UHGV virus genome: UHGV-0077319
Strand: one strand, 5' to 3'
DNA from: a virus
Length of the DNA: 15,138 nt
Numbering within the stretch: position 1 is the first letter of the stretch; each line of letters begins with the position of its first letter. The translations under genes and the position numbers were made by a program. A model generated the notes under the pieces. It did not search any database. It had not been told where the DNA came from and was given only the letters and a program-made list of their open reading frames with translations. Positions 1,703-15,138 of the stretch are shown piece by piece.

Positions 1703-2603
1703 CCGTTCCCCCGTTGGTCACGCTCCACTGAGTACATGATGCCGCCTGCGTTTTGTTCAGGACCACATCAGCCAGCGGTGAAGCCAGCTCCACACGTTGA
1801 ACACCCTCAACATGCAGCGCGGCAAAAATAGCACTACGGCGAATATCCCGACCGAGCCGCGTCTGACTGGCGATGTACCTCTGCAGGCTGACTTTTGCTG
1901 CTGCCATTACCGGCTCTGCTTCCGGTCCCGGATAAAGAAAAATGGTAGCTTCCACACGGTACGGGATGATTTCTGCGCTGCGAACCGTCAGACGGTCAGC
2001 CACCGGGCGGACGTTCTCACTGTTCAGGGCTTTCTCCACCACATCCAGCAAGTCTTTTTCTGCTGTTCCGTCGCCTTCACGACTCAGGACAGTCAGTACC
2101 ACCTCTGCAGGTGCCGGACTGGTTGCACTGGCATCCGCCACCCGACCGTCGGCGCTTCGGGCATGAAATTCATAAGCTGCAGTTGGTCCCGCAACTGAAA
2201 GCCCTTCAAAGGCTGCAGGCACACGCAGGCGTAACGCTTCATCGCTTTCCATCACAGCTGCAACGGGCGGCACAGCGTCATTATCAGCAGGCGTCACCGT
2301 CAGGCGTTTCACGTTGTAGTTGGCAGCGAGCTGGTCAAGATCGCCGCCCATCGCGTAAGCCACCATCACCGCCTGCGCGGCTTCGTTAATGCGCTGGCGC
2401 AGAAGCAACTCACGGTAAGCATTCTCCTGCAACAATTTGGTGACGGGTTCAGATTCCAGTTCCAGCGTGCGGATCACTGCTTCCTGCTCATCTTTCGGAT
2501 GAAGCGCCACAAATTCTGCCTTGCGTTCGGCAAGCAGCGTCTCAAAGTCCGGCACATCCACAATCTGCGGTGCAGGCAACTGCGAAAGGTCAATCACTGC
2601 CAT
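1695..2603 (-). CDS. J: baseplate assembly protein gpJ
   Basis: The track ORF 1695..2642 starts at an upstream Met. The P2-like N-terminus MAVIDLSQLPAPQIVDVPDFETLLAERKA begins at the ATG at 2603 (cat 2601..2603). The C-terminus ends ...VTNGGTDE like P2 gpJ. Confidence 0.85.
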   Translation of the reverse strand: MAVIDLSQLPAPQIVDVPDFETLLAERKAEFVALHPKDEQEAVIRTLELESEPVTKLLQENAYRELLLRQRINEAAQAVMVAYAMGGDLDQLAANYNVKRLTVTPADNDAVPPVAAVMESDEALRLRVPAAFEGLSVAGPTAAYEFHARSADGRVADASATSPAPAEVVLTVLSREGDGTAEKDLLDVVEKALNSENVRPVADRLTVRSAEIIPYRVEATIFLYPGPEAEPVMAAAKVSLQRYIASQTRLGRDIRRSAIFAALHVEGVQRVELASPLADVVLNKTQAASCTQWSVTNGGTDE

Positions 2604-2949
2604 TCTCTGCTCCTGTTGATACGGAAAGGGACACAGGCACACCGTTATTCCGCCGCCCGGTCAGCTCCACCACCATAGAACCGTCAAAGTTGCTGTTGAT
2701 GGTGATGGAATCCAGCGTCAGCCGTGGCTCCCAGCGACTCAGCGCCACATACACTGCCGACATGACCTGCAGGCGTAATGCCGGATTTTGTGGCTGGTCT
2801 ATCAGTGCCGACAGCAGGGAACCATATTCACGACGGGCAATGCGGCTACCCTGCGGCGTCAGCAAAATGTCCCGCACCGACTGGCGCAGATGGTCAATAT
2901 CAGTAATGGCTTTACCGCTGGTATTGTTCATCCCGATATAAAGCGTCAT
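2590..2949 (-). CDS. W: baseplate wedge protein gpW
   Basis: 119 aa. GMNNTSGKAITDIDHLRQSVRDILLTPQGSRIARREYGSLL is similar to P2 gpW. Overlaps the gpJ start by 14 nt and gpV by 4 nt. Confidence 0.85.
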   Translation of the reverse strand: MTLYIGMNNTSGKAITDIDHLRQSVRDILLTPQGSRIARREYGSLLSALIDQPQNPALRLQVMSAVYVALSRWEPRLTLDSITINSNFDGSMVVELTGRRNNGVPVSLSVSTGAENGSD

Positions 2950-3524
2950 ACCGGGCCTCCGGTGGTGTCGCCGCCTTTCAGGACGCCAGTATGCTGATGC
3001 GCATCAACCACGATCCCGTTAGAACTCATTGCACCGCCGCCCTGGGTAACGCCACCATTGATCACCACCTCACTGTTAATACGCGTGCGGTCAGCCTCCA
3101 GTACAAACTCACTGGTTTTCAGGGTGATATTGTCAGTGGCCTCAATGACCATAGATTTGATGCCCCTGACATACCAGAGCCCGGTGGCGGGTTCGTATTC
3201 AAACCAGCCACCGTCAGGATGTTCTGTCACGCAGGCGTCCGCCGACGTCGACGGTGGAGCGAACTGATTCGAATAGACAGCGGGCAGCGCAAAGGCAGTT
3301 TCCAGATTACCGCCCAGACTCAGCAGCACCACCTGCTCACCTTCCGATGGTCGCCACCATGTCCGGGCATTTCCTGCACGCAGCGTCAGCCAACTGATCC
3401 AGTTAGTTTCAAGCTCGCCCGTTTTCACTCGGCAAAGCCAGTTTTCCCTGTCCACTTCGGTGACTACCCCAGTGCGGATCAGGTTGGTGATAAGGCGCAT
3501 GATTTCGGTAAGTTGTGCGTTCAT
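2946..3524 (-). CDS. V: baseplate spike/assembly protein gpV
   Basis: 192 aa. MNAQLTEIMRLITNLIRTGVVTEVDRENWLCRVKTG...TWWRPSEGEQ is similar to P2 gpV. This is the first gene of the V-W-J-I-H operon. Confidence 0.85.
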   Translation of the reverse strand: MNAQLTEIMRLITNLIRTGVVTEVDRENWLCRVKTGELETNWISWLTLRAGNARTWWRPSEGEQVVLLSLGGNLETAFALPAVYSNQFAPPSTSADACVTEHPDGGWFEYEPATGLWYVRGIKSMVIEATDNITLKTSEFVLEADRTRINSEVVINGGVTQGGGAMSSNGIVVDAHQHTGVLKGGDTTGGPV

Positions 3525-3611
3525 GGGGCTGATTCTTGCATGCTAAAAGAAATAAGATCTCCTGTTCAAAAATGTATGAACTCCTATACAATGTATTTCC
3601 CATGAAAATTT
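3525..3611. promoter_or_regulatory. divergent control region between gpV (minus) and the moron ORF (plus); contains a TGT-N12-ACA dyad
   Basis: TGTatgaactcctatACA at 3573..3590 fits the TGT-N12-ACA Ogr/Delta activator-site consensus of P2 late promoters. A sigma70-like pair TTCAAA (3565..3570) and TACAAT (3587..3592) with 16 nt spacing reads toward the plus strand. Confidence 0.35.
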
Positions 3612-4214
3612 ATGGAATTGCTAAAAGTGAACGAAGATAATCAACCTGAAAAAGAAACCAATATCTTGAATAAATGGTCACCCAGGGACTTACTTAATCC
3701 TTTTACTGAACTCTTTACAATATTCACATCAAAAAATGATAACGAAGTGGAAAACGCAGCTGAAAATTTTCAGATGCGAATTCAAAAACTAATATTCTTC
3801 ACATTAACTTTACTACTTCTTACGAAAGGTTTTTTTGAAATACTACAAACTCTAACTTTTTTAGAACAACCCCTTATTCTTCATTTCCCACTCTTAAATG
3901 AACCTTTAGTGTTTTATAAAGACCATGGCATTGCTGGTAGCCTTTTAAGAATAAAATCACTAGTATTTGTAGCCAATGCATTAGCTCTTTCATGCGGTTT
4001 TCAGCTGGCATACATGCTTGTAACAAAGGGACCAGATGAAGCCGTAGAACCAATTATGTTGGGTATCGCCTCTGCTATTCTTTTAATTCTTTCTGATAGT
4101 TCTCCTGCAGAATGGGGGCTGGAGAAATCCTTAGCTATATTCTTTTTAATAATAAGCATCCCAATTTTATATTGGTCATCAAGAAAAATGAAAAAAGATA
4201 AAGATAACGAATGA
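3612..4214 (+). CDS. hypothetical polytopic membrane protein (AT-rich moron at the S/V junction)
   Basis: 200 aa ORF on the strand opposite to the late genes, in markedly AT-rich DNA with AT-rich codon usage. At least four hydrophobic helices (LIFFTLTLLLLTKGFF, ALSCGFQLAYMLV, IMLGIASAILLILS, LAIFFLIISIPILYW). No clear SD; the true start could be a downstream Met (for example MRIQKL). Confidence 0.55.
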   Translation: MELLKVNEDNQPEKETNILNKWSPRDLLNPFTELFTIFTSKNDNEVENAAENFQMRIQKLIFFTLTLLLLTKGFFEILQTLTFLEQPLILHFPLLNEPLVFYKDHGIAGSLLRIKSLVFVANALALSCGFQLAYMLVTKGPDEAVEPIMLGIASAILLILSDSSPAEWGLEKSLAIFFLIISIPILYWSSRKMKKDKDNE

Positions 4215-4240
4215 CACATTATTTTTCTTTATAGGTATAT

Positions 4241-4687
4241 TTATCTAAATAGCCAGCACAGAATAGCGTCACGGGTAACTATTTCCACTTCATCACTAAC
4301 GCCTAGTAGTCTACGCTCTGCATAGCGGACCTCCGGTCCTCTTCGACTGACGCGATCACGCAGGCCGTAATGGTGAACACGGGCAATGCGCTGTACCTTG
4401 CCTTCAAACTGCACGCTGGCAGAGTCGGCGCTGGCGGCAGTTTTCAGGTATTTTGTGGTGCGCAGCTTTGTAAACATCTGACGTTTGATGCGCCCCTTTT
4501 TGCTGCGTGCTGTTACCCGTCGCGGCTCATAACTGCTGCCATCTGGATTGCGCTGCATCCTGATGTTCTGCTGCTGTGTCCGGCGCAGTTCCTGCGCCAG
4601 CTGGCGCATCATGCGGCTTCTGGTGGCTGGCTCCAGATTCGCCAGCAAGGCACTCAGCCAGTCGTCCACTTTCTGCAGTTCAGCCAC
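4241..4687 (-). CDS. S: tail completion / virion morphogenesis protein gpS
   Basis: 148 aa ORF in the S position, last gene of the O-to-S operon. Size and position match P2 gpS (about 150 aa). Confidence 0.75.
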   Translation of the reverse strand: MAELQKVDDWLSALLANLEPATRSRMMRQLAQELRRTQQQNIRMQRNPDGSSYEPRRVTARSKKGRIKRQMFTKLRTTKYLKTAASADSASVQFEGKVQRIARVHHYGLRDRVSRRGPEVRYAERRLLGVSDEVEIVTRDAILCWLFR

Positions 4688-5132
4688 GTTTCACCGTCCA
4701 CATTTCTTCAGGTTCATCAGGTTCCGCTATAGCTTCAACGCTCGACACACTGCCGTCAGTGCTGACCAGCACACGCTCCGTCAGTTGCAGGTTCAGGCTG
4801 ATATCACAGACATCGTTGCGCAGAATATCCACCTCAAAGGTGAATAGCTTTTCCCGTAACGCCGGGTTATTGATGGCATCGGGCTGGTTATCACGCAGCC
4901 ACAGCAAAACCGGGGCCATCAACAGATTCTGGTCACCACTGAAATCCTCTATCACCACGTTCAGGGTGTAGCGGTACTCCCATGACATGGAGCTGGCCCC
5001 CGTGGCAACCAGCGAACCGTTATCCACAAACAGATGCAGTTTGTCCGGGTTATTACGGACATAAGGCACTGCTTTATTAATGGCGTGGCGCAGGGATTGT
5101 GGTTTGTTCACTATTTCGCTCCTGACACGCAA
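4680..5132 (-). CDS. R: tail completion protein gpR
   Basis: 150 aa. NPDKLHLFVDNGSL...RYTLNVVIEDFSGDQNLLMAPVLLWLRDNQPD parallels P2 gpR (NPDMLRIFVDNGSI...RYTLNVIVTDFTGD...VPVLAWLRENQPD). Confidence 0.8.
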   Translation of the reverse strand: MRVRSEIVNKPQSLRHAINKAVPYVRNNPDKLHLFVDNGSLVATGASSMSWEYRYTLNVVIEDFSGDQNLLMAPVLLWLRDNQPDAINNPALREKLFTFEVDILRNDVCDISLNLQLTERVLVSTDGSVSSVEAIAEPDEPEEMWTVKRG

Positions 5133-5364
5133 TAATCATGTCCACTTTGTCGGCACAGACCGCCCAGGCGGCCTCCGTTTCATCCAGCAACGCGTTCAGA
5201 TCACCGTTAGTGCGCGGCGCTGCCTGATCCAGTCGACACGGCGTCACCCGCGGACAACCACTGACGGTAAGCTGCACCTCCGGTAAATGCCGGACGTTTC
5301 CGCAGCCGGATAATGTCAGCAGGCAAAGGAGTATCAGCCCAGCGGCGTAAATCCTCGTTCTCAC
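5077..5364 (-). CDS. lysC: LysC-like o-spanin (outer-membrane lipoprotein), out of frame within and beyond lysB
   Basis: 95 aa with a signal peptide and lipobox (LILLCLLTLSGC). It starts inside the lysB frame and extends past the lysB stop, the embedded/overlapped spanin architecture of Rz/Rz1 and P2 lysB/lysC. The exact start is uncertain. Confidence 0.55.
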   Translation of the reverse strand: MRTRIYAAGLILLCLLTLSGCGNVRHLPEVQLTVSGCPRVTPCRLDQAAPRTNGDLNALLDETEAAWAVCADKVDMIIACQERNSEQTTIPAPRH

Positions 5365-5635
5365 GTTTCAGTTCCTCGATCCGGCGTTGTCGTTGTCTCA
5401 GCTGTGCGCTGGTCTGTTCTGCTTCGGCATAGAGCCGCGCCTGCTCCCGGTTATTGGTTTCATTCAGAATGGACAGGCTGATAAGCTGGCTGTTGCTCTT
5501 TGCCAGTGCCTGGCTTTTGCTCTGCAGCTCGTTTGCCTGCGTGCTGATGGTCTGGCTGGCATCAGCCAGCCGCCACGTCTGCCAGCCCAGCGCCGCCAGT
5601 AATAACGCCAGCACAACCAGCAGCAACCGGTTCAT
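5207..5635 (-). CDS. lysB: LysB-like i-spanin (Rz-like)
   Basis: 142 aa. N-terminal TM helix MNRLLLVVLALLLAALGW followed by a charged coiled-coil-like segment (EQARLYAEAEQTSAQLRQRQRRIEELKRENEDLRR). Sits in the lysis-cassette position. Confidence 0.7.
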   Translation of the reverse strand: MNRLLLVVLALLLAALGWQTWRLADASQTISTQANELQSKSQALAKSNSQLISLSILNETNNREQARLYAEAEQTSAQLRQRQRRIEELKRENEDLRRWADTPLPADIIRLRKRPAFTGGAAYRQWLSAGDAVSTGSGSAAH

Positions 5636-6009
5636 GCTGCTACCTGTTGCGCCATCTGATTACGGGTGATCCAGAAGGCAATAACGGTCAGTAGATAAAA
5701 GACTAGGGTAATAGCCCACCCCGTCCATGCGAGACTTACAACAATCAGCAATCGCATCACCCAACTGATAAATACGTTTTCTTTTCGGGTAATTGTCTTC
5801 AGCAAAGATGCCCTTAACTCCTGCCAGAGCGGGCCATTCTGAATTAACGCAGCCAGTGCTACCGGAATTACCGCCCATGTCAGCAAACAGGCTACCCAAA
5901 CGCCGGACGCTGCCAGTACCGGAAAGATCCCCTGCGGATACACCATTGCTGCGATTAACAGCGCCATCCATAACATCAGAAACAGTCCGCTGATTAATTT
6001 CTTTTTCAT
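5632..6009 (-). CDS. lysA: LysA-like multi-pass membrane protein (putative lysis regulator/antiholin)
   Basis: The track ORF 5632..6081 has an unlikely upstream start. MKKKLISGLFLMLWMALLIAAMV begins at the ATG at 6009 (cat 6007..6009). About 126 aa with four hydrophobic helices. Position is as for P2 lysA. Confidence 0.65.
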   Translation of the reverse strand: MKKKLISGLFLMLWMALLIAAMVYPQGIFPVLAASGVWVACLLTWAVIPVALAALIQNGPLWQELRASLLKTITRKENVFISWVMRLLIVVSLAWTGWAITLVFYLLTVIAFWITRNQMAQQVAA

Positions 6010-6010
6010 T

Positions 6011-6523
6011 TCAGTTTGCTCCCTGTAAACACCAGGCCATCTCCCGCGCACGGCGGTTATCCAGCCCCTGATTAAACACACCTTTTACATAAACCCAGCG
6101 CGGCAACTGTCGGCACGCATCCGCCCAGCGCCGCTGATTGAGCAATTTCACCAGCGTGGAACTACAGGCATTGCCCGTCCCCACGTTGAAGGCAAACGAC
6201 ACCGTAGCGTCATACACCTTCTGTGGTGGCTGTTGCTTCACACACCTTTCCAGTGCCCGCTCCACACGCAGCACGTTGGAGATCAGCCCTTCTGCTGCCT
6301 GTCGTTCCGTGATTGTTTTGCCGGGAATGACGCCCGATGTATTACCAATGCCGTCGGTCCAGACACCCGCGCTGCACTGATACGGCTGCAGACGACAGCC
6401 TTCGTAATCGGCAATCAGTTTCAGCCCCTCCACGGAGGTGTGAAGCTGCTGAAAACCCGGCAGCGTGGCAGCAATAGCCAGCACGACCCCGACAAGGCAG
6501 CGTTTAACGATTGATGGATTCAT
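6011..6523 (-). CDS. phage lysozyme (T4/P21-type, GH24-like) with a probable N-terminal SAR signal-anchor-release domain
   Basis: 170 aa. Weakly hydrophobic Gly/Ala-rich N-terminus (VKRCLVGVVLAIAATLPG), then a lysozyme core (EGLKLIADYEGCRLQPYQCSAGVWTDGIGNT; FNVGTGNACSSTLVKLLN) resembling the P21 R21 SAR endolysin. Confidence 0.85.
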   Translation of the reverse strand: MNPSIVKRCLVGVVLAIAATLPGFQQLHTSVEGLKLIADYEGCRLQPYQCSAGVWTDGIGNTSGVIPGKTITERQAAEGLISNVLRVERALERCVKQQPPQKVYDATVSFAFNVGTGNACSSTLVKLLNQRRWADACRQLPRWVYVKGVFNQGLDNRRAREMAWCLQGAN

Positions 6524-6719
6524 AGTCCTCCCGCGAGATCTGCCCGTCGCGCAGAAGCTGGTAGGCTTTGTGTTTGTAGTACCAGTTGATAGCCAGCATC
6601 AGCACACCAATCATCAGGCCGCCCAGCGTTGAGGCATCCTTGATGGACAAATCGCCCAGCCAGGCCAGCACGACGGCGATGCAATACGTGATAAAGGCGC
6701 TGATTCGCTCAAGCGTCAT
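6504..6719 (-). CDS. small holin, two predicted TM helices (pinholin-like)
   Basis: 71 aa. Two hydrophobic segments (ISAFITYCIAVVLAWL and LGGLMIGVLMLAINWYY) and a charged C-tail. Lies immediately upstream of, and overlaps, the lysozyme gene. Confidence 0.65.
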   Translation of the reverse strand: MTLERISAFITYCIAVVLAWLGDLSIKDASTLGGLMIGVLMLAINWYYKHKAYQLLRDGQISREDYESINR

Positions 6720-6722
6720 AAT

Positions 6723-6926
6723 TCAGTCCCATAGCTGGACGGTCTGCACGGTGGTGGTTGTCGGAATGTCCGGCAGCTCCACCTGCAGCCCGTGAGGTAA
6801 AAAGGGGCCGTATTCGGCAAGCCCCGGATTTGCCTTCAGTACCTGCTCCGTGACACCCTGCGTGCGCCCGTAATGACGCCAGCAAAGCGCGTCCACCGTG
6901 TCATACTGATGCGCACGCACTTTCAT
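6723..6926 (-). CDS. X: tail protein gpX
   Basis: 67 aa, the same size and position as P2 gpX (between L and the lysis genes). Confidence 0.75.
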   Translation of the reverse strand: MKVRAHQYDTVDALCWRHYGRTQGVTEQVLKANPGLAEYGPFLPHGLQVELPDIPTTTTVQTVQLWD

Positions 6927-7390
6927 CAGATAAGCTCCACTGTGCAGTGCGGCGCATCCTGTACCCGGCTGATGGCCCAGCGGGCGTCACGCCACAAATC
7001 ACCGCTTGCTTCCGCCTGTTCCTCGCCCCGCTTCACACCGGACGCCGTGGCGTCATAGTCCTGATAACGCTCATTGAGCATGGCGCGTGCCCAGCAGTAA
7101 ACCGCGTTGAAATAGTGATGAATGCGCTCACTTTTGCCGTCCAGCTGTTCCGCCGGAACCTCAGCCAGCGACGCATACCCCAGCATCTGCTGACGTCTGC
7201 GAAACTCATACAGCTCTGCGTTGACCTCCGAAATTGCCGACAGCGCAACCTGCTTTAAACGCGGCTGCGTCACCGTGCCGTCAGTGCGCATGACACTGCG
7301 AAACTCCGACAAGTCCACATCAGGCCAGAACGGCGTATTTCTGATGATTTCCGCCTGTTCCGGTACCTGTTCTGGCGCAACAAACTTCAT
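6926..7390 (-). CDS. L: head completion/stabilisation protein gpL
   Basis: The track ORF extends to 7453. The ATG at 7390 (MKFVAPEQ...) is preceded by AGGAGA on the minus strand (reverse complement of tctcct 7398..7403) and gives a P2 gpL-sized product. IIRNTPFWPDVDLSEFRSVMRTDGTVT is similar to P2 gpL. Confidence 0.8.
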   Translation of the reverse strand: MKFVAPEQVPEQAEIIRNTPFWPDVDLSEFRSVMRTDGTVTQPRLKQVALSAISEVNAELYEFRRRQQMLGYASLAEVPAEQLDGKSERIHHYFNAVYCWARAMLNERYQDYDATASGVKRGEEQAEASGDLWRDARWAISRVQDAPHCTVELI

Positions 7391-7485
7391 GCTGCTTTCT
7401 CCTGAAATAAAGGGCGGTGGACGGGGTTTTGATGTGGCTGTGCCTTTCGCCACCCCGTGCCGCCCGTGCGCGGGGGCACGTTCTG

Positions 7486-8136
7486 TCAGCGGCTGTCATT
7501 GCGCAGTCTGCGCTCCAGCTGCTGTTTGTCTTTTTTCACGCCACAGCGGGGATCGAGCTGTAACGCATGGTTGAGATGATTAAGGGCGGAAGCCGGATTG
7601 CTTTCACTCAGGACAGCGCCAATCGCTTTATGCAGACGCGCCCGTGACTGGTCTGGCATATCCAGACCGTCTGTCAGCTCCAGCGTCTGCAGCAACAGAT
7701 CGGCATCAAAGCCGGTGGCGGCAAGCATTGCGCTCTGCGCTGCATCTGCCATTTCCTCTGCCAGCACGGTCTGCACGTTGCGGTTACCCAGCGGCATCAC
7801 CCAGCCATGACGCAGGGCATGACGCCCAATATCCAGCGCCCCGGCATAATCTCCGGCATCAATGCGCCACAGCATCACGTACATCAGCACGTCATCCTGT
7901 TGAGCGCCTCCGGCAGCCAGGACGCCCTCCGCCCAGGCGGCATATTTCGGCAGCAGCTCCACCTTGATTTCCGCTTTTTTCACCGTGGACTGAACGCCCT
8001 TGAGACGGCGGCGGTCTTCCGCCAGTTGCAGCAGCATCAGGTCATAGCCCGACGCGTGGCGAACACTGCCGCCCTCACGGGCGGCCTGTTCAGCCTGAAC
8101 GCGCAGGCGATGCTGCCGTGCGGGACTCAGGCTCAT
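7486..8136 (-). CDS. M: terminase small (endonuclease) subunit gpM
   Basis: 216 aa. LPKYAAWAEGVL...GGAQQDDVLMYVMLWRIDAGDYAGALDIGRHALRHG is similar to P2 gpM. Sits between N and L. Confidence 0.85.
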   Translation of the reverse strand: MSLSPARQHRLRVQAEQAAREGGSVRHASGYDLMLLQLAEDRRRLKGVQSTVKKAEIKVELLPKYAAWAEGVLAAGGAQQDDVLMYVMLWRIDAGDYAGALDIGRHALRHGWVMPLGNRNVQTVLAEEMADAAQSAMLAATGFDADLLLQTLELTDGLDMPDQSRARLHKAIGAVLSESNPASALNHLNHALQLDPRCGVKKDKQQLERRLRNDSR

Positions 8137-8139
8137 GGT

Positions 8140-9195
8140 TTATGCTCCGGCTTCTACGGCGACGCTGAAGTCGCCAATCTGGATGTTTTCCACCAGTGCT
8201 GCGCAGCGGTAGTCCTCAACCACATAGGCTTCGTTAACGGATTCAAAGTTTTCAATCCGGTCACGTTTCGGGTTGTCGATAACTGAACGGCGGCGGGTGT
8301 CTTCCTGCCAGTAGATGGACAGGTTATCCAGACGGGTGATCAGCAGCGCATTCGGCGGGAAGAACGGCGCACGCACGGCCTGCAGGCCACCCATGCGTTT
8401 CTGGCTGATGATCATATCGGCAGCCAGTTTTTCACTGTTTTCCTGCTCTTTGTTGACCAGCGGGAAATACTTATCAGACAACAGTTCACGACCGCAAATC
8501 ACCACCAGATCGTCATCGTCCTGGTAGACCACGTCGATAAGCTCATTAACGGCATCCATCACCACGGCGTCCAGATTGGCATATTCGCCACCTTTGCCGA
8601 CTTTCACTGCACCCGGTGTGGTTTCACCGCCCGTGGTGCTGCTGCCCATGACGTGATCCGGTGCATCCTCACGAATTTTCTGCAGCCAGCCTTTATTCAC
8701 ATCCTGCAGCAGCGGGTTTTCGCTACGGTTGGAGGTTTTCGCACGCTTCACGCCGTTAAAGCCGATCATGATGCGGTCCAGTGCCTGACGTTTCACGATG
8801 GCGTCACGGATACGCACCTGGAAATCCTGAAACTTCGCCCACAGGTCCAGCTTCGCGTAGGTCAGCACCGTGTCAAAGTTGGTCTGCTCGCATTTATATT
8901 CCACATCGACCATCAGCGTCGGATCGACAGGTTCACGCTCTTTCGCGGTGGTGTCAGTGGTTCCGGCAATGGTGCTGCCAACACCCAGCCCCAGCAGCTG
9001 ACCGGACTGCTCAGTCACTGGCGTGACGTTAATCAGCGTCAGGAAAGCGGTGGACTGCTGGATCTGGTCTTCCAGCGTCTGCTGCACAGACGGCTCCACA
9101 GTGAATTTGCTGGACAGTTCTTCAACTGCCACACCGTTCAGACGCGCCAGCTGCTGCAGGTAAGCGTTAAAAGCAAAGCGGGTATTCTTCTTCAT
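8140..9195 (-). CDS. N: major capsid protein gpN
   Basis: 351 aa. N-terminus TRFAFNAYLQQLARLNGVAVEELSSKFTVEPSVQQTL is closely similar to P2 gpN. Confidence 0.9.
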   Translation of the reverse strand: MKKNTRFAFNAYLQQLARLNGVAVEELSSKFTVEPSVQQTLEDQIQQSTAFLTLINVTPVTEQSGQLLGLGVGSTIAGTTDTTAKEREPVDPTLMVDVEYKCEQTNFDTVLTYAKLDLWAKFQDFQVRIRDAIVKRQALDRIMIGFNGVKRAKTSNRSENPLLQDVNKGWLQKIREDAPDHVMGSSTTGGETTPGAVKVGKGGEYANLDAVVMDAVNELIDVVYQDDDDLVVICGRELLSDKYFPLVNKEQENSEKLAADMIISQKRMGGLQAVRAPFFPPNALLITRLDNLSIYWQEDTRRRSVIDNPKRDRIENFESVNEAYVVEDYRCAALVENIQIGDFSVAVEAGA

Positions 9196-9211
9196 CGGGT
9201 TTTGTGCTCCA

Positions 9212-10045
9212 TCAGCAATTGGTCAGAGTGTCAGCGGGGGTGTTACCGCCTGTTGCACGCTGGCGGTAGTCCTGGCGGCTGTCTTCTTGACTCAGCTTGT
9301 CCACCAGTTCGTTAAAGGCGGTCTGCTGTGCCTGCAGGGCAGTCTCCAGCTCAGACAGGCGTTCTTCCTGCTCAGACAGGGATTTTTCGGTGCGTGCGCT
9401 CAGGTTTTGCTGCTCAGTGGCGACCAGCTCCACGGCCTTATGCACATCAGAGAACCGGGCGTCATCGGACTGCTCTTTTTTGGTAAACAGCGCCGTGACA
9501 CGGGCAAACAGGGACGGTTTGTCATCCTGGATTTCTTCCAGTTCGATCACCGTTTCCTCTGCAGCGGTAAAGAGATTGGCAGGATTCTGCTTGCGGTTTG
9601 CCAGTGGGTTATGGGCTGCACTGGCGCTGAATGTCAGCATTTCAGTGCCCAGACTGGCAGGGTCATCAGTGGCAGCCAGGCCGACCAGGTAGGCTTTGCC
9701 CGTATCAGCGAACTTCGGGCTGACTTCCATAGAGGTGAATAATTTCTGGCCTTTTTTCACCAGTTCCACCAGGGACTCCGTTGGCTCAACGTCGGCATAC
9801 AGCGCCATCTTGCCTGCCAGCGGACCTTCCGTGATTTCTTCAGCAAACAGCGCCGTCACCTTGCCGTAGCGGTTAAAGGTGCTGTCCGGCAGATAAGACT
9901 TGATGTGCTCAAGGTTAATCAGCGCGGTATACACCGCCGGGTTGTAGCTGGCTGCCATCTGTTCCAGCCATTCACGCTGGATTTCGCGTCCGTCGGTGGT
10001 GGCACCTTCCACCCCGATGCGAAAACGCTTTGCTTTCACTGTCAT
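9212..10045 (-). CDS. O: capsid scaffolding protein gpO
   Basis: 277 aa. N-terminus MTVKAKRFRIGVEGATTDGREI is similar to P2 gpO. Acidic coiled-coil C-terminal half. First gene of the leftward late operon. Confidence 0.9.
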   Translation of the reverse strand: MTVKAKRFRIGVEGATTDGREIQREWLEQMAASYNPAVYTALINLEHIKSYLPDSTFNRYGKVTALFAEEITEGPLAGKMALYADVEPTESLVELVKKGQKLFTSMEVSPKFADTGKAYLVGLAATDDPASLGTEMLTFSASAAHNPLANRKQNPANLFTAAEETVIELEEIQDDKPSLFARVTALFTKKEQSDDARFSDVHKAVELVATEQQNLSARTEKSLSEQEERLSELETALQAQQTAFNELVDKLSQEDSRQDYRQRATGGNTPADTLTNC

Positions 10046-10187
10046 GAGCCGTGCTCCGTTAGAAAAAACTTACTGGAGCCTTATGGTTGCGGTGATGGGG
10101 GCAGTGAAACAATGCGCGGTATTTGTACCGACAACCACACAAACCGCAGGCGGGGAAAGCCTTCATTCAAGGCTGTAGGTTTGTGCC
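10046..10187. promoter_or_regulatory. divergent late promoter region (PO / PP equivalent) with a TGT-N12-ACA activator-site dyad
   Basis: 142 bp between divergent gpO (minus) and gpP (plus). TGTaccgacaaccacACA at 10124..10141 fits the Ogr/Delta binding consensus. Its centre lies about 55 bp upstream of a transcription start that would leave a ~30 nt leader for gpO. Confidence 0.5.
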
Positions 10188-11954
10188 ATGAACACCACAC
10201 TGACACCCGCAGATCTCGATCCCCGTCGGCAGGCCATGCTGCTGTACTTTCAGGGATACCGCGTAGCCCGCATTGCTGAAATGCTGGGCGAGAAAGTTGC
10301 AACCGTTCACAGCTGGAAAAAACGCGACAAGTGGGGTGACTATGGGCCGCTGGATCAGATGCAGCTCACCACCGCCGCACGCTACTGCCAGCTCATTATG
10401 AAGGAGCACAAAGAAGGGAAAGATTTCAAAGAGATTGACCTGCTGGCGCGCCAGTCGGAGCGCCATGCGCGGATCGGCAAGTTTAACAATGGCGGCAACG
10501 AAGCCGACTTAAACCCTAACGTCGCCAACCGCAACAAAGGCCCGCGCCGTCAGCCGGAAAAGAACGTTTTCACCGATGAACAGATTGAGAAGCTGGAAGA
10601 AATCTTCCATTCCTCCATGTTCAACTACCAGCGCCACTGGTGGGAAGCCGGAAAAACCAACCGCATCCGCAACCTGCTGAAGTCACGCCAGATCGGCGCG
10701 ACCTTCTATTTTGCCCGTGAAGCCCTGATTGACGCCCTGCTAACCGGGCGTAACCAGATTTTCCTTTCCGCCAGCAAGGCACAGGCCCACGTCTTTAAGC
10801 AGTACATCATCGACTTCGCCAAAGAAGTGGAGGTGGAGCTGAAAGGCGATCCGATAGTGCTTCCTAACGGGGCCACGCTGTACTTCCTCGGCACCAATGC
10901 CCGCACGGCCCAGAGTTACCACGGCAACCTGTATCTGGATGAATATTTCTGGATACCGAAATTCCAGGAGCTGCGCAAAGTGGCTTCCGGTATGGCTATT
11001 CACAAAAAATGGCGACAAACCTATTTTTCCACGCCATCCAGCCTGACACACAGTGCTTATCCGTTCTGGTCCGGTGCGCTGTTCAACCGTGGGCGCAACA
11101 AAGCCGACAAGGTGGACATCGACCTGTCCCACAGCAATCTGGCCCCCGGCCTGCTGTGCGCAGACGGGCAATACCGCCAGATAGTCACCGTGGAAGATGC
11201 GGTGCGCGGCGGCTGTAACCTGTTCGACCTCGACCAGCTACGCATGGAGTACAGCCCGGACGAATACCAGAACCTGCTGATGTGCGAGTTCGTGGACGAT
11301 CTCGCGTCCGTGTTCCCGCTTAGCGAACTGCAGACGTGCATGGTGGACAGTTGGGAAGTCTGGACCGACTTTCATGCACTGGCCCTGCGCCCGTTTGGCT
11401 GGCGCGAGGTGTGGATCGGTTATGACCCGGCAAAAGGTACGCAGAACGGCGACAGTGCCGGATGCGTGGTGGTGGCTCCGCCAGCCGTGCCGGGCGGTAA
11501 GTTCCGTATTCTTGAGCGTCACCAGTGGCGCGGGATGGACTTCCGCGCCCAGGCTGATGCAATCAAAAAACTGACCGAGCAGTACAACGTGACCTATATC
11601 GGCATTGACTCGACAGGCGTCGGTCACGGGGTTTATGAGAACGTGAAAGCGTTCTTTCCTGCCGTCCGGGAGTTTGTCTACAACCCCAACGTTAAAAACG
11701 CTCTGGTACTCAAGGCCTACGACATTATCAGTCACCGTCGTCTGGAGTTTGACGCCGGACACACCGACATTGCGCAGTCATTCATGGCAATCCGTCGCGC
11801 AACCACCGCCAGCGGCAACCGCCCGACCTATGAAGCCAGCCGCAGCGAAGAAGCCAGCCACGCCGATCTGGCCTGGGCAACAATGCACGCACTGTTTAAC
11901 GAACCGCTGCAGGGCGAATCCGCCAATACCAGCAATATTGTGGAGATTTTTTGA
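10188..11954 (+). CDS. P: terminase large (ATPase) subunit gpP
   Basis: 588 aa. N-terminus PRRQAMLLYFQGYRVARIAEMLGEKVATVHSWKKRD is similar to P2 gpP. Stop overlaps the Q start (ATGA). Confidence 0.9.
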   Translation: MNTTLTPADLDPRRQAMLLYFQGYRVARIAEMLGEKVATVHSWKKRDKWGDYGPLDQMQLTTAARYCQLIMKEHKEGKDFKEIDLLARQSERHARIGKFNNGGNEADLNPNVANRNKGPRRQPEKNVFTDEQIEKLEEIFHSSMFNYQRHWWEAGKTNRIRNLLKSRQIGATFYFAREALIDALLTGRNQIFLSASKAQAHVFKQYIIDFAKEVEVELKGDPIVLPNGATLYFLGTNARTAQSYHGNLYLDEYFWIPKFQELRKVASGMAIHKKWRQTYFSTPSSLTHSAYPFWSGALFNRGRNKADKVDIDLSHSNLAPGLLCADGQYRQIVTVEDAVRGGCNLFDLDQLRMEYSPDEYQNLLMCEFVDDLASVFPLSELQTCMVDSWEVWTDFHALALRPFGWREVWIGYDPAKGTQNGDSAGCVVVAPPAVPGGKFRILERHQWRGMDFRAQADAIKKLTEQYNVTYIGIDSTGVGHGVYENVKAFFPAVREFVYNPNVKNALVLKAYDIISHRRLEFDAGHTDIAQSFMAIRRATTASGNRPTYEASRSEEASHADLAWATMHALFNEPLQGESANTSNIVEIF

Positions 11955-12979
11955 TGGGAAAGAGTAAGAAGAACCGCGCTGCGGCGACGAAACAGCTCCA
12001 GCTTAAAAACCAGACTACAGCCGAAGCATTCAGCTTCGGCGATCCCGTTCCTGTTCTGGACCGCCGAGAACTGCTGGACTATGTGGAATGCGTACAGATG
12101 GACCGTTGGTATGAGCCGCCCGTCAGCTTTGACGGACTGGCGCGCACCTTCCGCGCTGCCGTGCATCACAGTTCCCCGATTGCAGTAAAGTGCAACATTC
12201 TGACCAGTACCTATATCCCTCATCCGCTGCTCAGCCAGCAGGCTTTTTCGCGTTTTGTGCAGGACTATCTGGTATTTGGTAACGCCTACCTGGAGAAACG
12301 CACAAACCGATTCGGTGAAGTTATCGCTCTTGAGCCTGCGCTGGCAAAATACACCCGACGCGGATTAGACCTGGATACCTACTGGTTTGTGCAATACGGT
12401 ATGACAACCCAGCCGTATCAGTTCACGAAAGGCAGCATTTTTCATCTGATGGAACCGGACATCAACCAGGAGATCTACGGCCTGCCCGGCTATCTTTCTG
12501 CCATTCCGTCAGCCCTACTCAACGAGTCCGCCACGCTGTTCCGTCGCAAGTATTACATTAACGGCAGCCATGCGGGCTTTATCATGTACATGACCGATGC
12601 CGCGCAAAACCAGGAGGATGTGAACAACCTCCGCAACGCGATGAAAAGCGCCAAAGGTCCAGGCAACTTCCGCAACCTGTTTATGTACTCGCCTAACGGC
12701 AAAAAGGACGGGCTTCAGATCATCCCATTGTCAGAAGTCGCGGCGAAGGATGAATTTCTTAATATCAAGAACGTGAGTCGGGATGACATGATGGCAGCGC
12801 ACCGCGTGCCGCCTCAGATGATGGGGATTATGCCTAATAATGTTGGGGGGTTTGGGGATGTGGAGAAAGCAAGTAAAGTGTTTGTACGAAACGAACTTAT
12901 ACCATTACAAAAACGCTTAGGAGAGATAAATGAATGGCTTGATAAAAAAATAATAGAATTTGAAATATATTCACTCTGA
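11951..12979 (+). CDS. Q: portal (capsid vertex) protein gpQ
   Basis: 342 aa in the position downstream of and overlapping P, as in the P2 P-Q operon. The last ~30 codons fall in AT-rich sequence, which suggests the island junction lies at the gene's 3' end. Confidence 0.85.
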   Translation: MMGKSKKNRAAATKQLQLKNQTTAEAFSFGDPVPVLDRRELLDYVECVQMDRWYEPPVSFDGLARTFRAAVHHSSPIAVKCNILTSTYIPHPLLSQQAFSRFVQDYLVFGNAYLEKRTNRFGEVIALEPALAKYTRRGLDLDTYWFVQYGMTTQPYQFTKGSIFHLMEPDINQEIYGLPGYLSAIPSALLNESATLFRRKYYINGSHAGFIMYMTDAAQNQEDVNNLRNAMKSAKGPGNFRNLFMYSPNGKKDGLQIIPLSEVAAKDEFLNIKNVSRDDMMAAHRVPPQMMGIMPNNVGGFGDVEKASKVFVRNELIPLQKRLGEINEWLDKKIIEFEIYSL

Positions 12980-13026
12980 TACATTTACATCACTTAATAG
13001 GACATCCATCGCTCAACACATAATAA

Positions 13027-13056
13027 GAAAAAAAACTACGGCACTACCGTGCCGTA
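13027..13056 (-). terminator. rho-independent terminator for the minus-strand cargo operon (possibly weakly bidirectional)
   Basis: Perfect 7 bp stem acggcac (13038..13044) / gtgccgt (13049..13055) with a 4 nt loop. On the minus strand the hairpin is followed by a U8 tract (A-run 13028..13035 on the plus strand). Lies directly after the last cargo gene. Confidence 0.6.
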
Positions 13057-13064
13057 ACAAATTA

Positions 13065-13559
13065 TCACTTTAAGAATTTTTTCTGATAAGACTCATCAAT
13101 TAGAGATTTAATTATTTTCGCCCTTTTTGACACTAATACACTAATTCTTGTCCTTTGACTTTTATCATACTCCTGTGCTTTTTCAATATTAGATGTAGCA
13201 TCTTTGAATAAATCAGCAATCAAAGGTTTATAGTCACCTTCGATATTAATGCGTTGTTTTAGATGATTCAACCACCGCTCGGTCTCCGCAAGAAGTGCTG
13301 TTATCTCATTTTGAAATGACATTGCATCAATTTCTTTTGAATCTCCCGGTATCCAAAACTTTCTTGATGCAGATTCAATTTCCTTTAAATTATCTGAAAC
13401 ATTTTTTACAATTGACCATGTTTCACTCCTCTTTTGCAACGCACGGGAGTTTCTATATACAAAAACCCAACCAATCAAGGCTGTTAGAATTGCAATCACA
13501 CCTGAACTAGCAAGGTATTGTAATAACCGCAGATAAACCGGAAGTTCATCCATGAACAT
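13065..13559 (-). CDS. cargo gene C: single-pass membrane protein with coiled-coil-like soluble domain (hypothetical; candidate effector)
   Basis: AT-rich ORF. Candidate starts are GTG 13562, ATG 13559 (overlapping the gene B stop as TGATG) and ATG 13553 (GGAG 8 nt upstream). N-terminal hydrophobic helix LLQYLASSGVIAILTALIGWVFVY, then a charged helical region. The terminator follows. Confidence 0.6.
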   Translation of the reverse strand: MFMDELPVYLRLLQYLASSGVIAILTALIGWVFVYRNSRALQKRSETWSIVKNVSDNLKEIESASRKFWIPGDSKEIDAMSFQNEITALLAETERWLNHLKQRINIEGDYKPLIADLFKDATSNIEKAQEYDKSQRTRISVLVSKRAKIIKSLIDESYQKKFLK

Positions 13560-13879
13560 CACTCCTTTTTAGCATCAGAAATATATCCCCATATACTATC
13601 CTTGAGGAAATCCAAATCAGTAAATATTTTTAATTTTTTCCTAATTATAGCTTTATCTATATTATTTGTTCTATAAAGTCCACCAAACGCCTCTTCCAAG
13701 AATGAAGAACCATAACCCATAGCACCATCAAGGTACACGTGCACCTCATCATAATCTTGGATGGCTTTCAAAAGATACTTTTCACGGAAACGTTGTCCAT
13801 TATCAGGACCATCCTCATCATAGCGGCCATAGGGAACATCTGAAAAATCTTCAGCAACATGTATCTCTTTGATTTTCAT
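13559..13879 (-). CDS. cargo gene B: small acidic protein, STAS-like (anti-sigma-antagonist-like) by motif; hypothetical
   Basis: 106 aa. ATG at 13879 overlaps the gene A stop (ATGA). VHVYLDGAMGYGSSFLEEAFGGL resembles the strand-Ser-helix core of STAS/SpoIIAA-like domains. The assignment is from motif memory only. Confidence 0.55.
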   Translation of the reverse strand: MKIKEIHVAEDFSDVPYGRYDEDGPDNGQRFREKYLLKAIQDYDEVHVYLDGAMGYGSSFLEEAFGGLYRTNNIDKAIIRKKLKIFTDLDFLKDSIWGYISDAKKE

Positions 13880-14943
13880 TCAGCACCTCTCAAACTTACA
13901 TTCCATTGAATAAGGGTTCCACCTATGGAGTATGGCAGATCAAATTTATCTTCAACATTATTTTCAGCATCATAAGAATATCGTCCCATTCCACTAAAAA
14001 TATGTAACTGCCCCTCAGGGTTATCTACAACATACCTTTTCATATCAGGTAATCCTTTACCATGCTTCTGACTATTCATTCTTGTCTCACCATACTGTAC
14101 AGCCGCGAATATTTTATCAGAATCCGTCTTAGGATTAAATATCTGAGCGATAAATGTGAAAAAGTCTTTTTTAACCAATGTAACTGGGATACCTTCTCCC
14201 ATATCATACACCATCAAAAATAGTTGTTCTTCGACTTTGTGTGCCAATATCCACCATCTTTTACCAATGTCCTCAATAAATTCAGAGAACTGTTCTTCAT
14301 TTGAATACGCATGTAGACCAACATTGCTAATAGATTCAGTTAATGCTGCATATAATTTCACACCATCCGAAGCGGAAATCTTACCTTCATAAATGGTATC
14401 TTTTATATAACGTAGAATATTTTTAATTTTTTGTCTTGCTTCGGCACTTTCATGATCATCTCTAGTTTTGCCTGCAACAGCGGAAACAATTTCCATTGAA
14501 TTAAGCTTATCTGCAGCTATACGCTGAAACCCTGTAATCCCCCAAATACCACATATTTTAAACCAGTTATTTGCCCTGGGTGAACCGCACGTAGTAATAG
14601 AAATTATATTTTTATCTTTTGTTTGCCTTTGTAAAAAGTCAATATGTGCATACAATACGATTACTGCACATGCTTTCAGAGATTTTGTATTTCTGAAATC
14701 TATTAAAATTTTCTCACCATCATTGATGTAATCTCTGATTAAAGTGATAAACTCTATAAATAGTTTGTAATTTTTAGTATTAAATAAGTCCAATGACGCA
14801 GGCGCGGGTATTCTCACACGAGAGAATACCCGCATGGGCTGTAGCATCCGTCTTCCACCAGAAAGCTTTCTTGACTCCCGCTTCGCAATCTTCCTTGCTC
14901 TGATCAAAGAATGTTCAATTTGTTCTTCAGTTAGCCGCTTCAT
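13876..14943 (-). CDS. cargo gene A: protein with an N-terminal domain of unknown function and a C-terminal GHKL (histidine-kinase-like) ATPase domain
   Basis: The track ORF starts at 14988, but the ATG at 14943 (MKRLTEEQ) has GAGG 7 nt upstream. Bergerat-fold motifs appear in the canonical order: N-box ESISNVGLHA, G1 box YDMGEGIP (DxGxG), G2 box HGKGLPD (GxGL). The N-terminal ~200 residues are unrecognised. Confidence 0.65.
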   Translation of the reverse strand: MKRLTEEQIEHSLIRARKIAKRESRKLSGGRRMLQPMRVFSRVRIPAPASLDLFNTKNYKLFIEFITLIRDYINDGEKILIDFRNTKSLKACAVIVLYAHIDFLQRQTKDKNIISITTCGSPRANNWFKICGIWGITGFQRIAADKLNSMEIVSAVAGKTRDDHESAEARQKIKNILRYIKDTIYEGKISASDGVKLYAALTESISNVGLHAYSNEEQFSEFIEDIGKRWWILAHKVEEQLFLMVYDMGEGIPVTLVKKDFFTFIAQIFNPKTDSDKIFAAVQYGETRMNSQKHGKGLPDMKRYVVDNPEGQLHIFSGMGRYSYDAENNVEDKFDLPYSIGGTLIQWNVSLRGAE

Positions 14944-15138
14944 ATCCTTTCCTCGATAGTTGTTGAAGCTTATCAGTTCACGCAACAACTACAAACATCT
15001 ACCTGCTATCTTAAAGCAACAATTTGAAAGAACATTGAAAATCATAGTATCTGTTTGTAAACAAACGACTGTTTCTATACCTTGCGCGCGCTCGTATCCC
15101 CGCCACGCCTGCCCGCTTTATGTAGTGGTTTTCATGCA

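Follow-up and report, generated by a model that had tools for sequence, protein, structure and literature searches.

The window analyzed here (the whole 15,138-nucleotide stretch of virus genome UHGV-0077319) holds part of a P2-like prophage in which portal gene Q is followed, ahead of the cos region, by an AT-rich island with three minus-strand, translationally coupled genes that we call A, B and C. We judge that this island is probably accessory cargo in a cos-proximal defense hotspot, where it would specify a three-component phospho-switch of the CapK/VapK type that most likely serves as an anti-phage abortive-infection module. The genes and their relatives are described below from sequence and structure comparisons, and it is from these that we infer an anti-phage activity for the cassette and an abortive-infection role for protein C.

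The original prediction had proposed an AT-rich block lying between the end of Q and the point where the backbone resumes, and this is borne out by base composition, since the GC content is 0.354 in positions 12980-15075 compared to 0.545 in positions 1-12979 and 0.571 from 15076 to the end of the window. Alignment by blastn with a P2-like prophage that carries other cargo refines the limits of the variable segment (GC 0.35 against 0.55 for the backbone) to 12969-15081; homology is lost after position 12968 and is back at 15082. The left flank is gene Q itself (11951-12979, plus strand), which is identified by its Pfam Phage_portal match (E 4.5e-17) and RefSeq annotation; the GC profile places its final ~40 codons inside the low-GC zone, and backbone homology stops 11 nt ahead of its stop codon. 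The right-end flank is P2-like backbone that includes a cos-core-like sequence, GGCGTGGCGGGGATA (15095-15109, minus strand), with one match in the window; its region is homologous to the P2 cos region in the cloned P2 and E1114 sequences in the portion of Table S2A of Rousset et al. considered here.

This interval is highly variable among relatives. Part of a query spanning positions 12700-15138 is matched by 1271 of 5426 complete E. coli genomes, and the entire island occurs in just 20 of those 1271; at the same site other prophages have unrelated genes instead. The expectation that comparison of the Q-side interval in relatives would reveal variable cargo between conserved flanks is thus upheld. 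Variable genes that lie between conserved portal and replication flanks and adjacent to cos are also what characterizes the P2 gpA-gpQ defense hotspot as defined by Rousset et al. 2022 (PMC9122126), and the predicted hotspot context agrees with that definition. The prediction had further equated the site with the locus of P2 old and tin. These are, like the cassette, accessory lysogen genes of the same gpA-gpQ cos-proximal hotspot; however, in the P2 clone of the same portion of Table S2A they lie beyond cos as seen from Q, whereas the cassette lies between Q and cos, so the hotspot is shared but the side of cos is not. The old and tin proteins are unrelated to those of the cassette.

The three genes are arranged as a compact operon. 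At 13876-13879 the letters 'tcat' give an ATGA in which the start of B overlaps the stop of A, and the proposed TGATG at 13557-13561 ('catca') is likewise present in the sequence, but the better start for C is the ATG at 13553, which has an AAGGAG Shine-Dalgarno sequence 8 nt before it and is the RefSeq choice (alternative in-frame starts are at 13559 and 13562). The mechanical extent of the gene A open reading frame reaches a TTG at 14988; in the RefSeq form of 355 amino acids the ATG is preceded by AGGAAAGG. As predicted, an intrinsic terminator closes the operon (minus strand, 13058-13035), with a 10-bp stem containing 5 GC pairs, a loop of 4 and then TTTTTTTT, a T8 tail; four terminator-like sites were found in the region, with 0.8 expected.

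The putative leader and promoter region (14944-15081, minus strand) contains a 14-bp palindrome, GTTTGTAAACAAAC, at 15054-15067 and a repeated TACAAAC/GTTTGTA motif. Blocks of it are kept in Klebsiella and other P2-like relatives: the Shine-Dalgarno sequence GAGGAAAGG and, farther out, GCTTTAAGATA (near -70) and TTTACAAAC (near -116). A LexA box and an Ogr-type TGT-N12-ACA dyad were both considered by eye for the leader and rejected because the spacing of the palindrome differs. A consensus scan gave no strong or convincing sigma-70 promoter upstream of A, promoter-like sites did not exceed those in shuffled sequences, and Rfam gave no RNA family in 12800-15138. A perfect 12-bp hairpin within gene A was also considered as a conserved element and was discarded as not conserved.

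Gene A (13876-14943, minus strand) encodes a predicted STAS plus GHKL serine kinase of the VapK/CapK-like type, as indicated by motifs, an AF2 model, hhalign and PHROG. Its protein has, in order, a basic N-terminal helix, a STAS domain and a GHKL serine kinase domain of the RsbW/SpoIIAB type. The anti-sigma-factor serine kinase branch of the GHKL superfamily is marked by an N-box, G1, G2 and GT motif in a Bergerat fold, and A has all of these: E203/N207 in the N-box, D247-G249-G251 in G1, G295-G297-L298 in G2, and G342-T343-L344 are invariant, and they remain so across homologs down to 24% identity. In the AF2 model (pLDDT 80, pTM 0.81) the fold is nearest to those of RsbW and SpoIIAB, both anti-sigma serine kinases, and includes the N-terminal STAS domain. 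Motifs and fold therefore confirm the earlier call of a GHKL ATPase, but A appears to be more than an ATPase, namely a serine protein kinase with a STAS domain of its own. Profile alignment of A residues 57-347 with VapK by hhalign covers 256 columns (94%, E 1.4e-7), and A matches phrog_3364 with an E value of 3e-55. Its Pfam HATPase_c score of 18.9 bits falls below the cut-off of 26.4, as does that of VapK itself (23.4 bits); the Pfam model does not reach so divergent a family. When PDB chains were searched with the sequences of A and B, nothing significant was returned, and profile searches with the two proteins returned sub-threshold matches only (VapS, E 0.29; RsbW, E 0.38).

Gene B (13559-13879, minus strand) encodes a protein of 106 amino acids that is the predicted kinase substrate and switch. 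It matches Pfam PF14213 (DUF4325) at E 3.5e-12 (46.3 bits, cut-off 23) and is named 'STAS-like domain-containing protein' in RefSeq, in agreement with the small STAS-like protein that had been predicted. Among 24 homologs S58 is invariant and S59 is at least 90% conserved, and this Ser58-Ser59 dyad lies at the canonical STAS phospho-site; of 80 B homologs from viral contigs, all but one (79) have the motif SSFL[DE]E[AS]F. VapS belongs to the same Pfam family (E 2.7e-17 to PF14213), and hhalign places S58 of B opposite phospho-Ser48 of VapS; the direct score is weak (E 6e-4, probability 29%), and the proposed relationship of B to VapS rests on common Pfam membership. In a P4 homolog of B the position of S58 is occupied by Arg and S59 is retained; the predicted acceptor may be either of these two adjacent serines.

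Gene C (13065-13553, minus strand) encodes the predicted effector, a single-pass membrane protein of 162 amino acids. Hydropathy and an all-helical AF2 model (pLDDT 88) show a cytoplasmic four-helix bundle preceded by one N-terminal transmembrane helix (residues 12-34, approximately), which accords with the predicted membrane-bound helical protein; Kyte-Doolittle hydropathy in 19-residue windows peaks at 2.19 (residues 14-32), and the basic stretch RNSRALQKR comes after this peak. Pfam, NCBIfam and PADLOC contain no family for C, and 16 of its homologs gave only noise against Pfam, which did not reproduce the DUF2489 label that UniRef attaches to one of them. A fold search returned only generic four-helix bundles, sensor domains among them, and no toxic or enzymatic domain is recognizable in C. 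With such a generic fold and no such domain, C could be a sensor or anchor rather than an effector, and the system might then defend with its roles reversed: C would perceive membrane perturbation or DNA injection, A would be the effector kinase that acts on phage or host proteins in the manner of Stk2, and B would be a pseudosubstrate or regulator. We regard this arrangement as unlikely.

As a small prophage-encoded protein that spans the inner membrane once, C might also block DNA entry by other phages as a superinfection-exclusion protein, or might set lysis timing for the P2-like phage itself as a holin or antiholin, in either case tuned by the kinase-STAS pair. The one holin match of C that PHROG gives, to phrog_20, is weak (E 0.006) and is confined to the transmembrane segment, and the complete P2-like lysis cassette (holin, lysozyme, LysB/LysC) sits elsewhere in the prophage; C was therefore rejected as a holin. 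Furthermore, the cassette genes are missing from ~98% of matching E. coli genomes and so do not have a core function, the same cassette is also found outside prophages, and to our knowledge known exclusion proteins come without accompanying kinase-STAS pairs. An exclusion or lysis function for C thus seems to us quite improbable.

The closest characterized relative of the cassette that we favor as an abortive-infection module is VapKSC, a kinase/STAS-antitoxin/PIN-toxin anti-phage system described by Chambers et al. (EMBO J 2026; PMC13373217). In that system VapS is the antitoxin and a phosphomimetic VapS released the toxin VapC; the operon gave ~2 logs of protection, which needs a residue in the putative ssDNA site of the kinase, Ser48 of VapS and the toxin active site (PMC13373217). 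The order of genes is the same as in the cassette (kinase, small STAS protein, effector), VapK and A are homologous and have the STAS+GHKL kinase architecture in common, VapS and B are both DUF4325 proteins that are encoded directly downstream of the kinase and have a conserved serine at the equivalent place, and both families are found on mobile elements and near defense genes; 36% of VapKSC loci have a defense gene within 10 kb. There are also clear differences. The effector VapC is a PIN nuclease, whereas C is a single-pass membrane protein with a four-helix bundle and has no PIN domain; a phmmer search with VapC against 79 third-gene products gave no match. A forms a separate clade, the profile of its family giving VapK no more than 20 bits, and A has an additional basic N-terminal helix of ~45 residues. 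VapK F54, the proposed aromatic ssDNA contact at the STAS-GHKL interface (W68 in CapK), aligns by hhalign with S88 of A, a column that is occupied in the A family by S, A, I, R, D, K or E; no aromatic residue is present at this position, and the ssDNA trigger can therefore not be carried over to A. Finally, the long C-terminal tail of VapS is missing from B, which ends instead in a conserved IWxYI helix. Judged by sequence, the cassette is related to VapKSC, with membrane protein C in place of the PIN toxin.

The CapK-CapS regulators of immune operons provide a second precedent, in which a STAS domain lies within a GHKL serine kinase whose substrate is a helix-2 serine of a STAS partner encoded immediately downstream (PMC13373217). 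A and B have the same layout of a kinase with internal STAS and a downstream STAS partner. However, CapK has an N-terminal HTH, and CapS, with its winged-helix DNA-binding domain, acts as repressor of a downstream operon, whereas B consists of STAS only, with no DNA-binding domain, and the next gene encodes a single small membrane protein within the same operon; the STAS region of CapS has no match to Pfam DUF4325. The SpoIIAB-SpoIIAA and RsbW-RsbV pairs differ in that the cassette locus has no sigma factor or PP2C phosphatase, A is fused to a STAS domain of its own, and a membrane protein, not transcription, is the presumed output. The original idea of a partner-switching-like pair that controls an effector thus gains experimental precedent in VapKSC and CapK/CapS, to which the pair is tied by the homology of A to VapK and by the presence of VapS in the Pfam family of B.

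Is the cassette an isolated curiosity of this prophage? Viral contigs and protein-context look-ups yielded a cassette family on 287 viral contigs, and the kinase family comprises 1368 clusters at E<=1e-30. In related cassettes the A profile recovers 72 of 78 upstream open reading frames, and all but two of 79 downstream ones (77) are homologous to C; by these sequence measures the cassette is a large, coherent three-gene family. It is very unlikely that the island is decaying or functionless hitch-hiking cargo, a view for which we see nothing specific beyond the annotation of its reading frames as hypothetical; those of A, B and C are intact with coupled starts, the size of the kinase family and the invariance of the catalytic motifs of A argue against it, and synteny is kept in 80 viral loci.

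The neighborhoods of family members bear on function. One member is in the independent P4 hotspot. Distant members adjoin Thoeris genes, lie between a large methylase-like open reading frame and a DEAD/Helicase_C/MZB protein, or lie beside a prophage cI-type repressor. Among 150 neighboring open reading frames from ~33 non-redundant viral loci, 15 are Peptidase_S24 repressors and single neighbors match IetA, PD-Lambda-5 and methyltransferase models. The frequent proximity to SOS-cleavable S24 repressors, together with a three-component toxin-antitoxin layout, would also suit a stress-responsive toxin-antitoxin or addiction module whose main task is to stabilize the prophage or to respond to DNA damage and other general stresses, and which has hardly any or no specific role against phages; the authors of VapKSC emphasize that stress response and immunity are not sharply separated (PMC13373217). 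Nevertheless, the cassette recurs in two independent defense hotspots, P2 and P4, and beside Thoeris and further defense genes, and VapKSC itself protected against a phage (PMC13373217); moreover, toxin-antitoxin function and abortive infection can coexist. We consider a module of this kind with little or no specific role in defense to be rather improbable.

The original prediction had called the system undescribed. It is indeed absent from PADLOC-DB v2.0.0, in which A, B and C have no match at E<=1, and NCBIfam has no family for any of the three, but the description needs amendment, since the cassette is catalogued in the tables of Rousset et al. 2022 and has a characterized sister system in VapKSC. 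In the parts of those tables considered here, the island's own proteins WP_042005405 and WP_119743262 are listed among P2-hotspot loci (Table S5A), and Table S1B lists a P4-hotspot system #69, 'HATPase_c | DUF4325' (PMC9122126). The three proteins of system #69 match the profiles of A (4e-51), B (1e-36) and C (9e-7), so it belongs to the same family; its catalogue entry in that part of the source has no name, mechanism or phenotype. The terms 'DUF4325' and 'HATPase' do not occur in Table S2 (tested systems), the portion of that table considered does not include the cassette type, and the searchable literature returned no experiment on the cassette or a family member. The 'hp+hp+hp' (3HP) system of Rousset et al. 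was considered and rejected, as its three proteins, in the portion of Table S2A consulted, differ in length and have no similarity by eye.

These findings are consistent with the following scheme for an abortive-infection module. In the lysogen, A, B and C would be made together from one operon whose translational coupling is seen in the sequence, and unphosphorylated B would bind the cytoplasmic domain of C and keep it inactive, by analogy with VapS and VapC. An infection-associated signal would activate A by way of the kinase's N-terminal STAS domain, its basic N-terminal helix or both, and A would then phosphorylate B at Ser58/Ser59, at the start of STAS helix 2, a step suggested by the intact kinase motifs, the conserved serines and the homology to VapK/VapS. 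Phospho-B would release C, which might oligomerize or otherwise perturb the inner membrane, and growth would stop ahead of the completed cycle of the invading phage. Since the operon has no phosphatase gene, the switch would work in one direction only. CBASS, Pycsar and retron systems likewise have small transmembrane effectors in the inner membrane, believed to disrupt it and so kill or arrest the cell upon release by a sensor; these are activated by nucleotide signals or other partners rather than by a kinase-STAS switch, and they have no sequence or specific fold similarity to C. A more tentative possibility, to which we give less credence, is that kinase-STAS pairs are a general, swappable phospho-switch of immunity and that this cassette family would be the first in which phosphorylation directly gates a non-enzymatic membrane-disrupting effector, with a trigger other than ssDNA that is perhaps perceived by the basic N-terminal helix of A or by C at the membrane.

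Lying as it does between the portal gene and cos, the cassette is a compact, naturally portable unit of 2.1 kb that is easy to clone. The lack of a PADLOC v2 model and the sub-threshold HATPase_c match mean that current defense annotation probably overlooks the family, and a kinase without the ssDNA-contact residue raises the question of what else switches on such enzymes. If active, the cassette would add a membrane effector to the nuclease toxin and the transcription factor that the CapK/VapK kinase-STAS principle (published 2026) already covers, and phospho-STAS switching would then be a modular control layer in phage defense.

The window derives from an E. coli P2-like prophage in which the terminase ATPase gene P (10188-11954, plus strand) precedes the portal gene Q (11951-12979, plus strand); in strain D3, the best-matching complete genome, the onward genes are DinI-like, replication endonuclease A, cox/C-type and integrase. 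GC content is 0.545 over 1-12979, drops to 0.354 over 12980-15075 and rises to 0.571 at the right end, and this profile, the three minus-strand ORFs that fill the low-GC segment and the terminator beyond them bear out the original prediction of an AT-rich three-gene island downstream of Q. When a P2-like prophage with other cargo is aligned by blastn, homology breaks off at 12968 and resumes at 15082, so the variable segment is 12969-15081. Backbone homology with other P2-like prophages thus stops 11 nt short of the Q stop codon, which places the recombination junction inside, or at the very end of, Q; the low-GC zone also takes in the final ~40 codons of that gene (12850-12979). A cos-core-like sequence, GGCGTGGCGGGGATA (15095-15109, minus strand), lies just inside the resumed backbone.

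As expected for variable cargo between conserved flanks, the whole island is present in only 20 of the 1271 complete E. coli genomes (5426 searched) that match part of a 12700-15138 query, and unrelated genes occupy its site in others. The site is the cos-proximal gpA-gpQ hotspot defined by Rousset et al. 2022 (PMC9122126). Its earlier description as the locus where P2 carries old and tin is correct as to the hotspot but not the exact position, since P2 itself runs Q, terminator, cos, old, tin (Table S2A, P2 clone, PMC9122126); P2 old and tin are on the far side of cos, whereas the island fills the interval from the end of Q to the cos core (12980-15109). Strain NCTC11121 has an extra 225-aa hypothetical gene beyond cos, before DinI, so one prophage can hold cargo on both sides of cos. 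Two NCTC strains carry an IS1A between Q and the terminator of the island (1863-2560 in the NCTC11121 locus L090; about 12998-13006 in the window), with all three island genes intact.

The first gene, A (13876-14943, minus strand, 355 aa), has an ATG preceded by AGGAAAGG. The ATG of B (13559-13879, minus strand, 106 aa) overlaps the TGA of A as ATGA, and the ATG of C (13065-13553, minus strand, 162 aa) lies 8 nt past an AAGGAG in the last codons of B; two more in-frame starts of C overlap the B stop, among them the TGATG that had been noted along with the ATGA, and both overlaps are in the sequence. Downstream of C is a terminator (13058-13035, minus strand) with a 10-bp stem and T8. No Rfam RNA family matches within the island. 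The leader of A (14990-15067) contains a 14-bp palindrome, GTTTGTAAACAAAC (15054-15067), extra copies of TACAAAC/GTTTGTA and a conserved GCTTTAAGATA block; in P2-like relatives the TACAAAC/GTTTGTA motif is found at about -116 from the ATG (three of the relatives checked) or about -53 (one). The palindrome and motif could be an operator or promoter, but none of the three proteins A, B and C has an evident DNA-binding domain. A also contains a mismatch-free inverted repeat of 12 bp, GCGGGTATTCTC/GAGAATACCCGC, around a 6-nt loop (14804-14833, codons ~37-47), GC-rich to a degree unusual in this gene; folding of the 66-81 nt around it gives -27 to -30 kcal/mol. In the homologous genes of related prophages, which keep the peptide RVFSRVRIP, the repeat is weaker or missing, so its conservation as an element is unlikely.

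A is a STAS-fused serine kinase. It reaches Pfam HATPase_c only below threshold (18.9 bits) and belongs to the function-unknown PHROGs family phrog_3364 (E 3e-55). In an alignment of 23 homologues, with identity down to 24%, its GHKL motifs are invariant: the N-box E203/N207 (in ESISNVGLHAY), G1 D247-G249-G251 (in YDMGEGIP), G2 G295-G297-L298 (in HGKGL) and the terminal GGTLIQW. The kinase fold is likewise intact. Residues 1-45 (14809-14943) form a K/R-rich helix, MKRLTEEQIEHSLIRARKIAKRESRKLSGGRRM..., that is conserved in the A family and has no counterpart in solved relatives; the helix is a candidate for binding nucleic acid or membrane and could be what senses the trigger.

A full-text literature search brought up two kinase-STAS systems, both described by Chambers et al. 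(EMBO J 2026, PMC13373217). CapK is an HTH-STAS-GHKL kinase that, in response to ssDNA, phosphorylates a conserved serine of the repressor CapS (STAS-wHTH); VapKSC is a three-gene operon of VapK (STAS+GHKL), VapS (STAS plus a short tail) and VapC (a PIN toxin), in which phosphorylation of the antitoxin VapS by VapK is proposed to release VapC, and which gives ~100-fold protection against phage Bas42 (PMC13373217). We took the three Vap sequences from its supplementary files. In hhalign the match of the A-family profile to VapK extends across both domains (256 columns, 94%, E 1.4e-7), VapS also matches PF14213 (E 2.7e-17), and the B profile pairs S58 with VapS S48 (E 6e-4), with VapS ranking third when that profile is run against PDB sequences (E 0.29). 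Thus, A and B are a VapK/VapS-type pair, and the partner-switching interpretation was largely right in kind. Against the A-family HMM, VapK reaches only 20 bits, which places A in a sister clade. VapK lacks the N-terminal helix, aligning only from A residue 57 onward, and its F54, the proposed ssDNA-contact aromatic, falls in a variable non-aromatic column of the A family (S88 in A). VapC has no counterpart in the cassette and matches none of 79 third genes of related cassettes.

On sequence grounds B is a DUF4325 STAS-like protein (PF14213 above cut-off, E 3.5e-12). All 24 homologues aligned carry S58 and at least 90% of them S59, within GYGSSFLEEAFGGL, and 79 of 80 viral-contig relatives contain SSFL[DE]E[AS]F. 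This dyad is at the start of STAS helix 2, the site of phosphorylation in SpoIIAA. CapS and VapS are phosphorylated at the same point, on S54 and S48 respectively (PMC13373217). A P4-hotspot homologue has Arg at S58 and retains S59, so S59 may be the acceptor. Of the 441 positions of the phrog_5816 profile, B matches just 341-440 (E 5.5e-14); DUF4325 is therefore also found at the C terminus of far larger phage proteins, which may be fusions to a partner domain.

C combines a membrane anchor with a helical bundle. Its single strongly hydrophobic segment (residues 14-32, Kyte-Doolittle 19-residue mean 2.19) is followed by the basic stretch RNSRALQKR, which by the positive-inside rule puts the remainder in the cytoplasm. 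Homology and architecture make a kinase-STAS switch that frees a membrane effector in abortive infection the most likely mechanism. Unphosphorylated B would hold C inactive; an infection signal would switch on A, which would phosphorylate the Ser58/59 dyad of B, and released C, presumably toxic, would harm or depolarise the inner membrane and so abort infection. The roles might instead be reversed, with C the sensor and A the effector, or the same parts might make up a general stress toxin-antitoxin module. A role in superinfection exclusion or lysis timing is less likely, and dead cargo very unlikely.

The A-B-C layout persists where the A homologue is distant, at 26-32% identity, as in a high-GC metagenome contig, a second contig and Ignatzschineria, and around B homologues in a Pseudomonas putida prophage (beside an S24 repressor), Acidithiobacillus (adjoining the Thoeris genes ThsB/ThsA) and Dyella (with a serine recombinase alongside). 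The high-GC contig (L003, 105-10029; A 2974-4029, B 4076-4417, C 4421-4900) has as cassette flanks a 942-aa ORF whose NPPW motif is methyltransferase-like and a 2137-aa DEAD/Helicase_C/MZB protein, with a small ORF pair resembling a toxin-antitoxin pair between those flanks, and looks like a defence island. A viral contig scan found 287 contigs with a B relative; in 80 of these loci the A profile matches 72/78 upstream ORFs, jackhmmer from C reaches 77/79 downstream ORFs, and 56/78 downstream ORFs have an N-terminal hydrophobic segment (Kyte-Doolittle mean at least 1.6). In five near-identical loci (L045-L047, L049, L065) the kinase ORF is apparently truncated or frameshifted. The 150 neighbour ORFs scanned (~33 non-redundant viral loci) include 15 Peptidase_S24 repressors, 4 TerB-domain proteins, P2-type portal, terminase and GPA genes and, at single loci, matches to IetA, PD-Lambda-5 (A+B) and methyltransferase models. 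The cassette thus occupies several classical "moron"/defence prophage positions.

The cassette had also been called undescribed, which holds for its function: the literature searchable here yielded no paper on it, and PADLOC-DB v2.0.0 contains no model. It is too strong for the cassette itself, which Rousset et al. had catalogued, and for its class, now published. Their P2-hotspot loci include WP_042005405, WP_119743262 and a DUF4325 protein, and their P4-hotspot system #69, "HATPase_c | DUF4325", occurs 9 times and is annotated "1 TM in protein 3" (PMC9122126); its three proteins match the profiles of A (4e-51), B (1e-36) and C (9e-7). "DUF4325" and "HATPase" are not found in Table S2 of tested systems, nor is the system #69 cassette type in the portion of that table covered here (PMC9122126). 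Their "hp+hp+hp" system was rejected as a match, its proteins looking unrelated by inspection. A 2026 preprint on P2/P4 hotspots, in which most untested cargo sampled in P4 proved protective, does not mention the cassette ("STAS" is nowhere in its full text).

We conclude that the cassette, which had been catalogued earlier, adds a new effector variant to the kinase-STAS (VapKSC/CapKS) class that has just been published. It is worth testing as a large family (in 1.84 billion representatives the A profile matches 3990 clusters, at 50% identity, with E<=1e-3, of which 1368 reach E<=1e-30) that is outside the PADLOC-DB v2.0.0 models and whose trigger probably differs from that of VapK.
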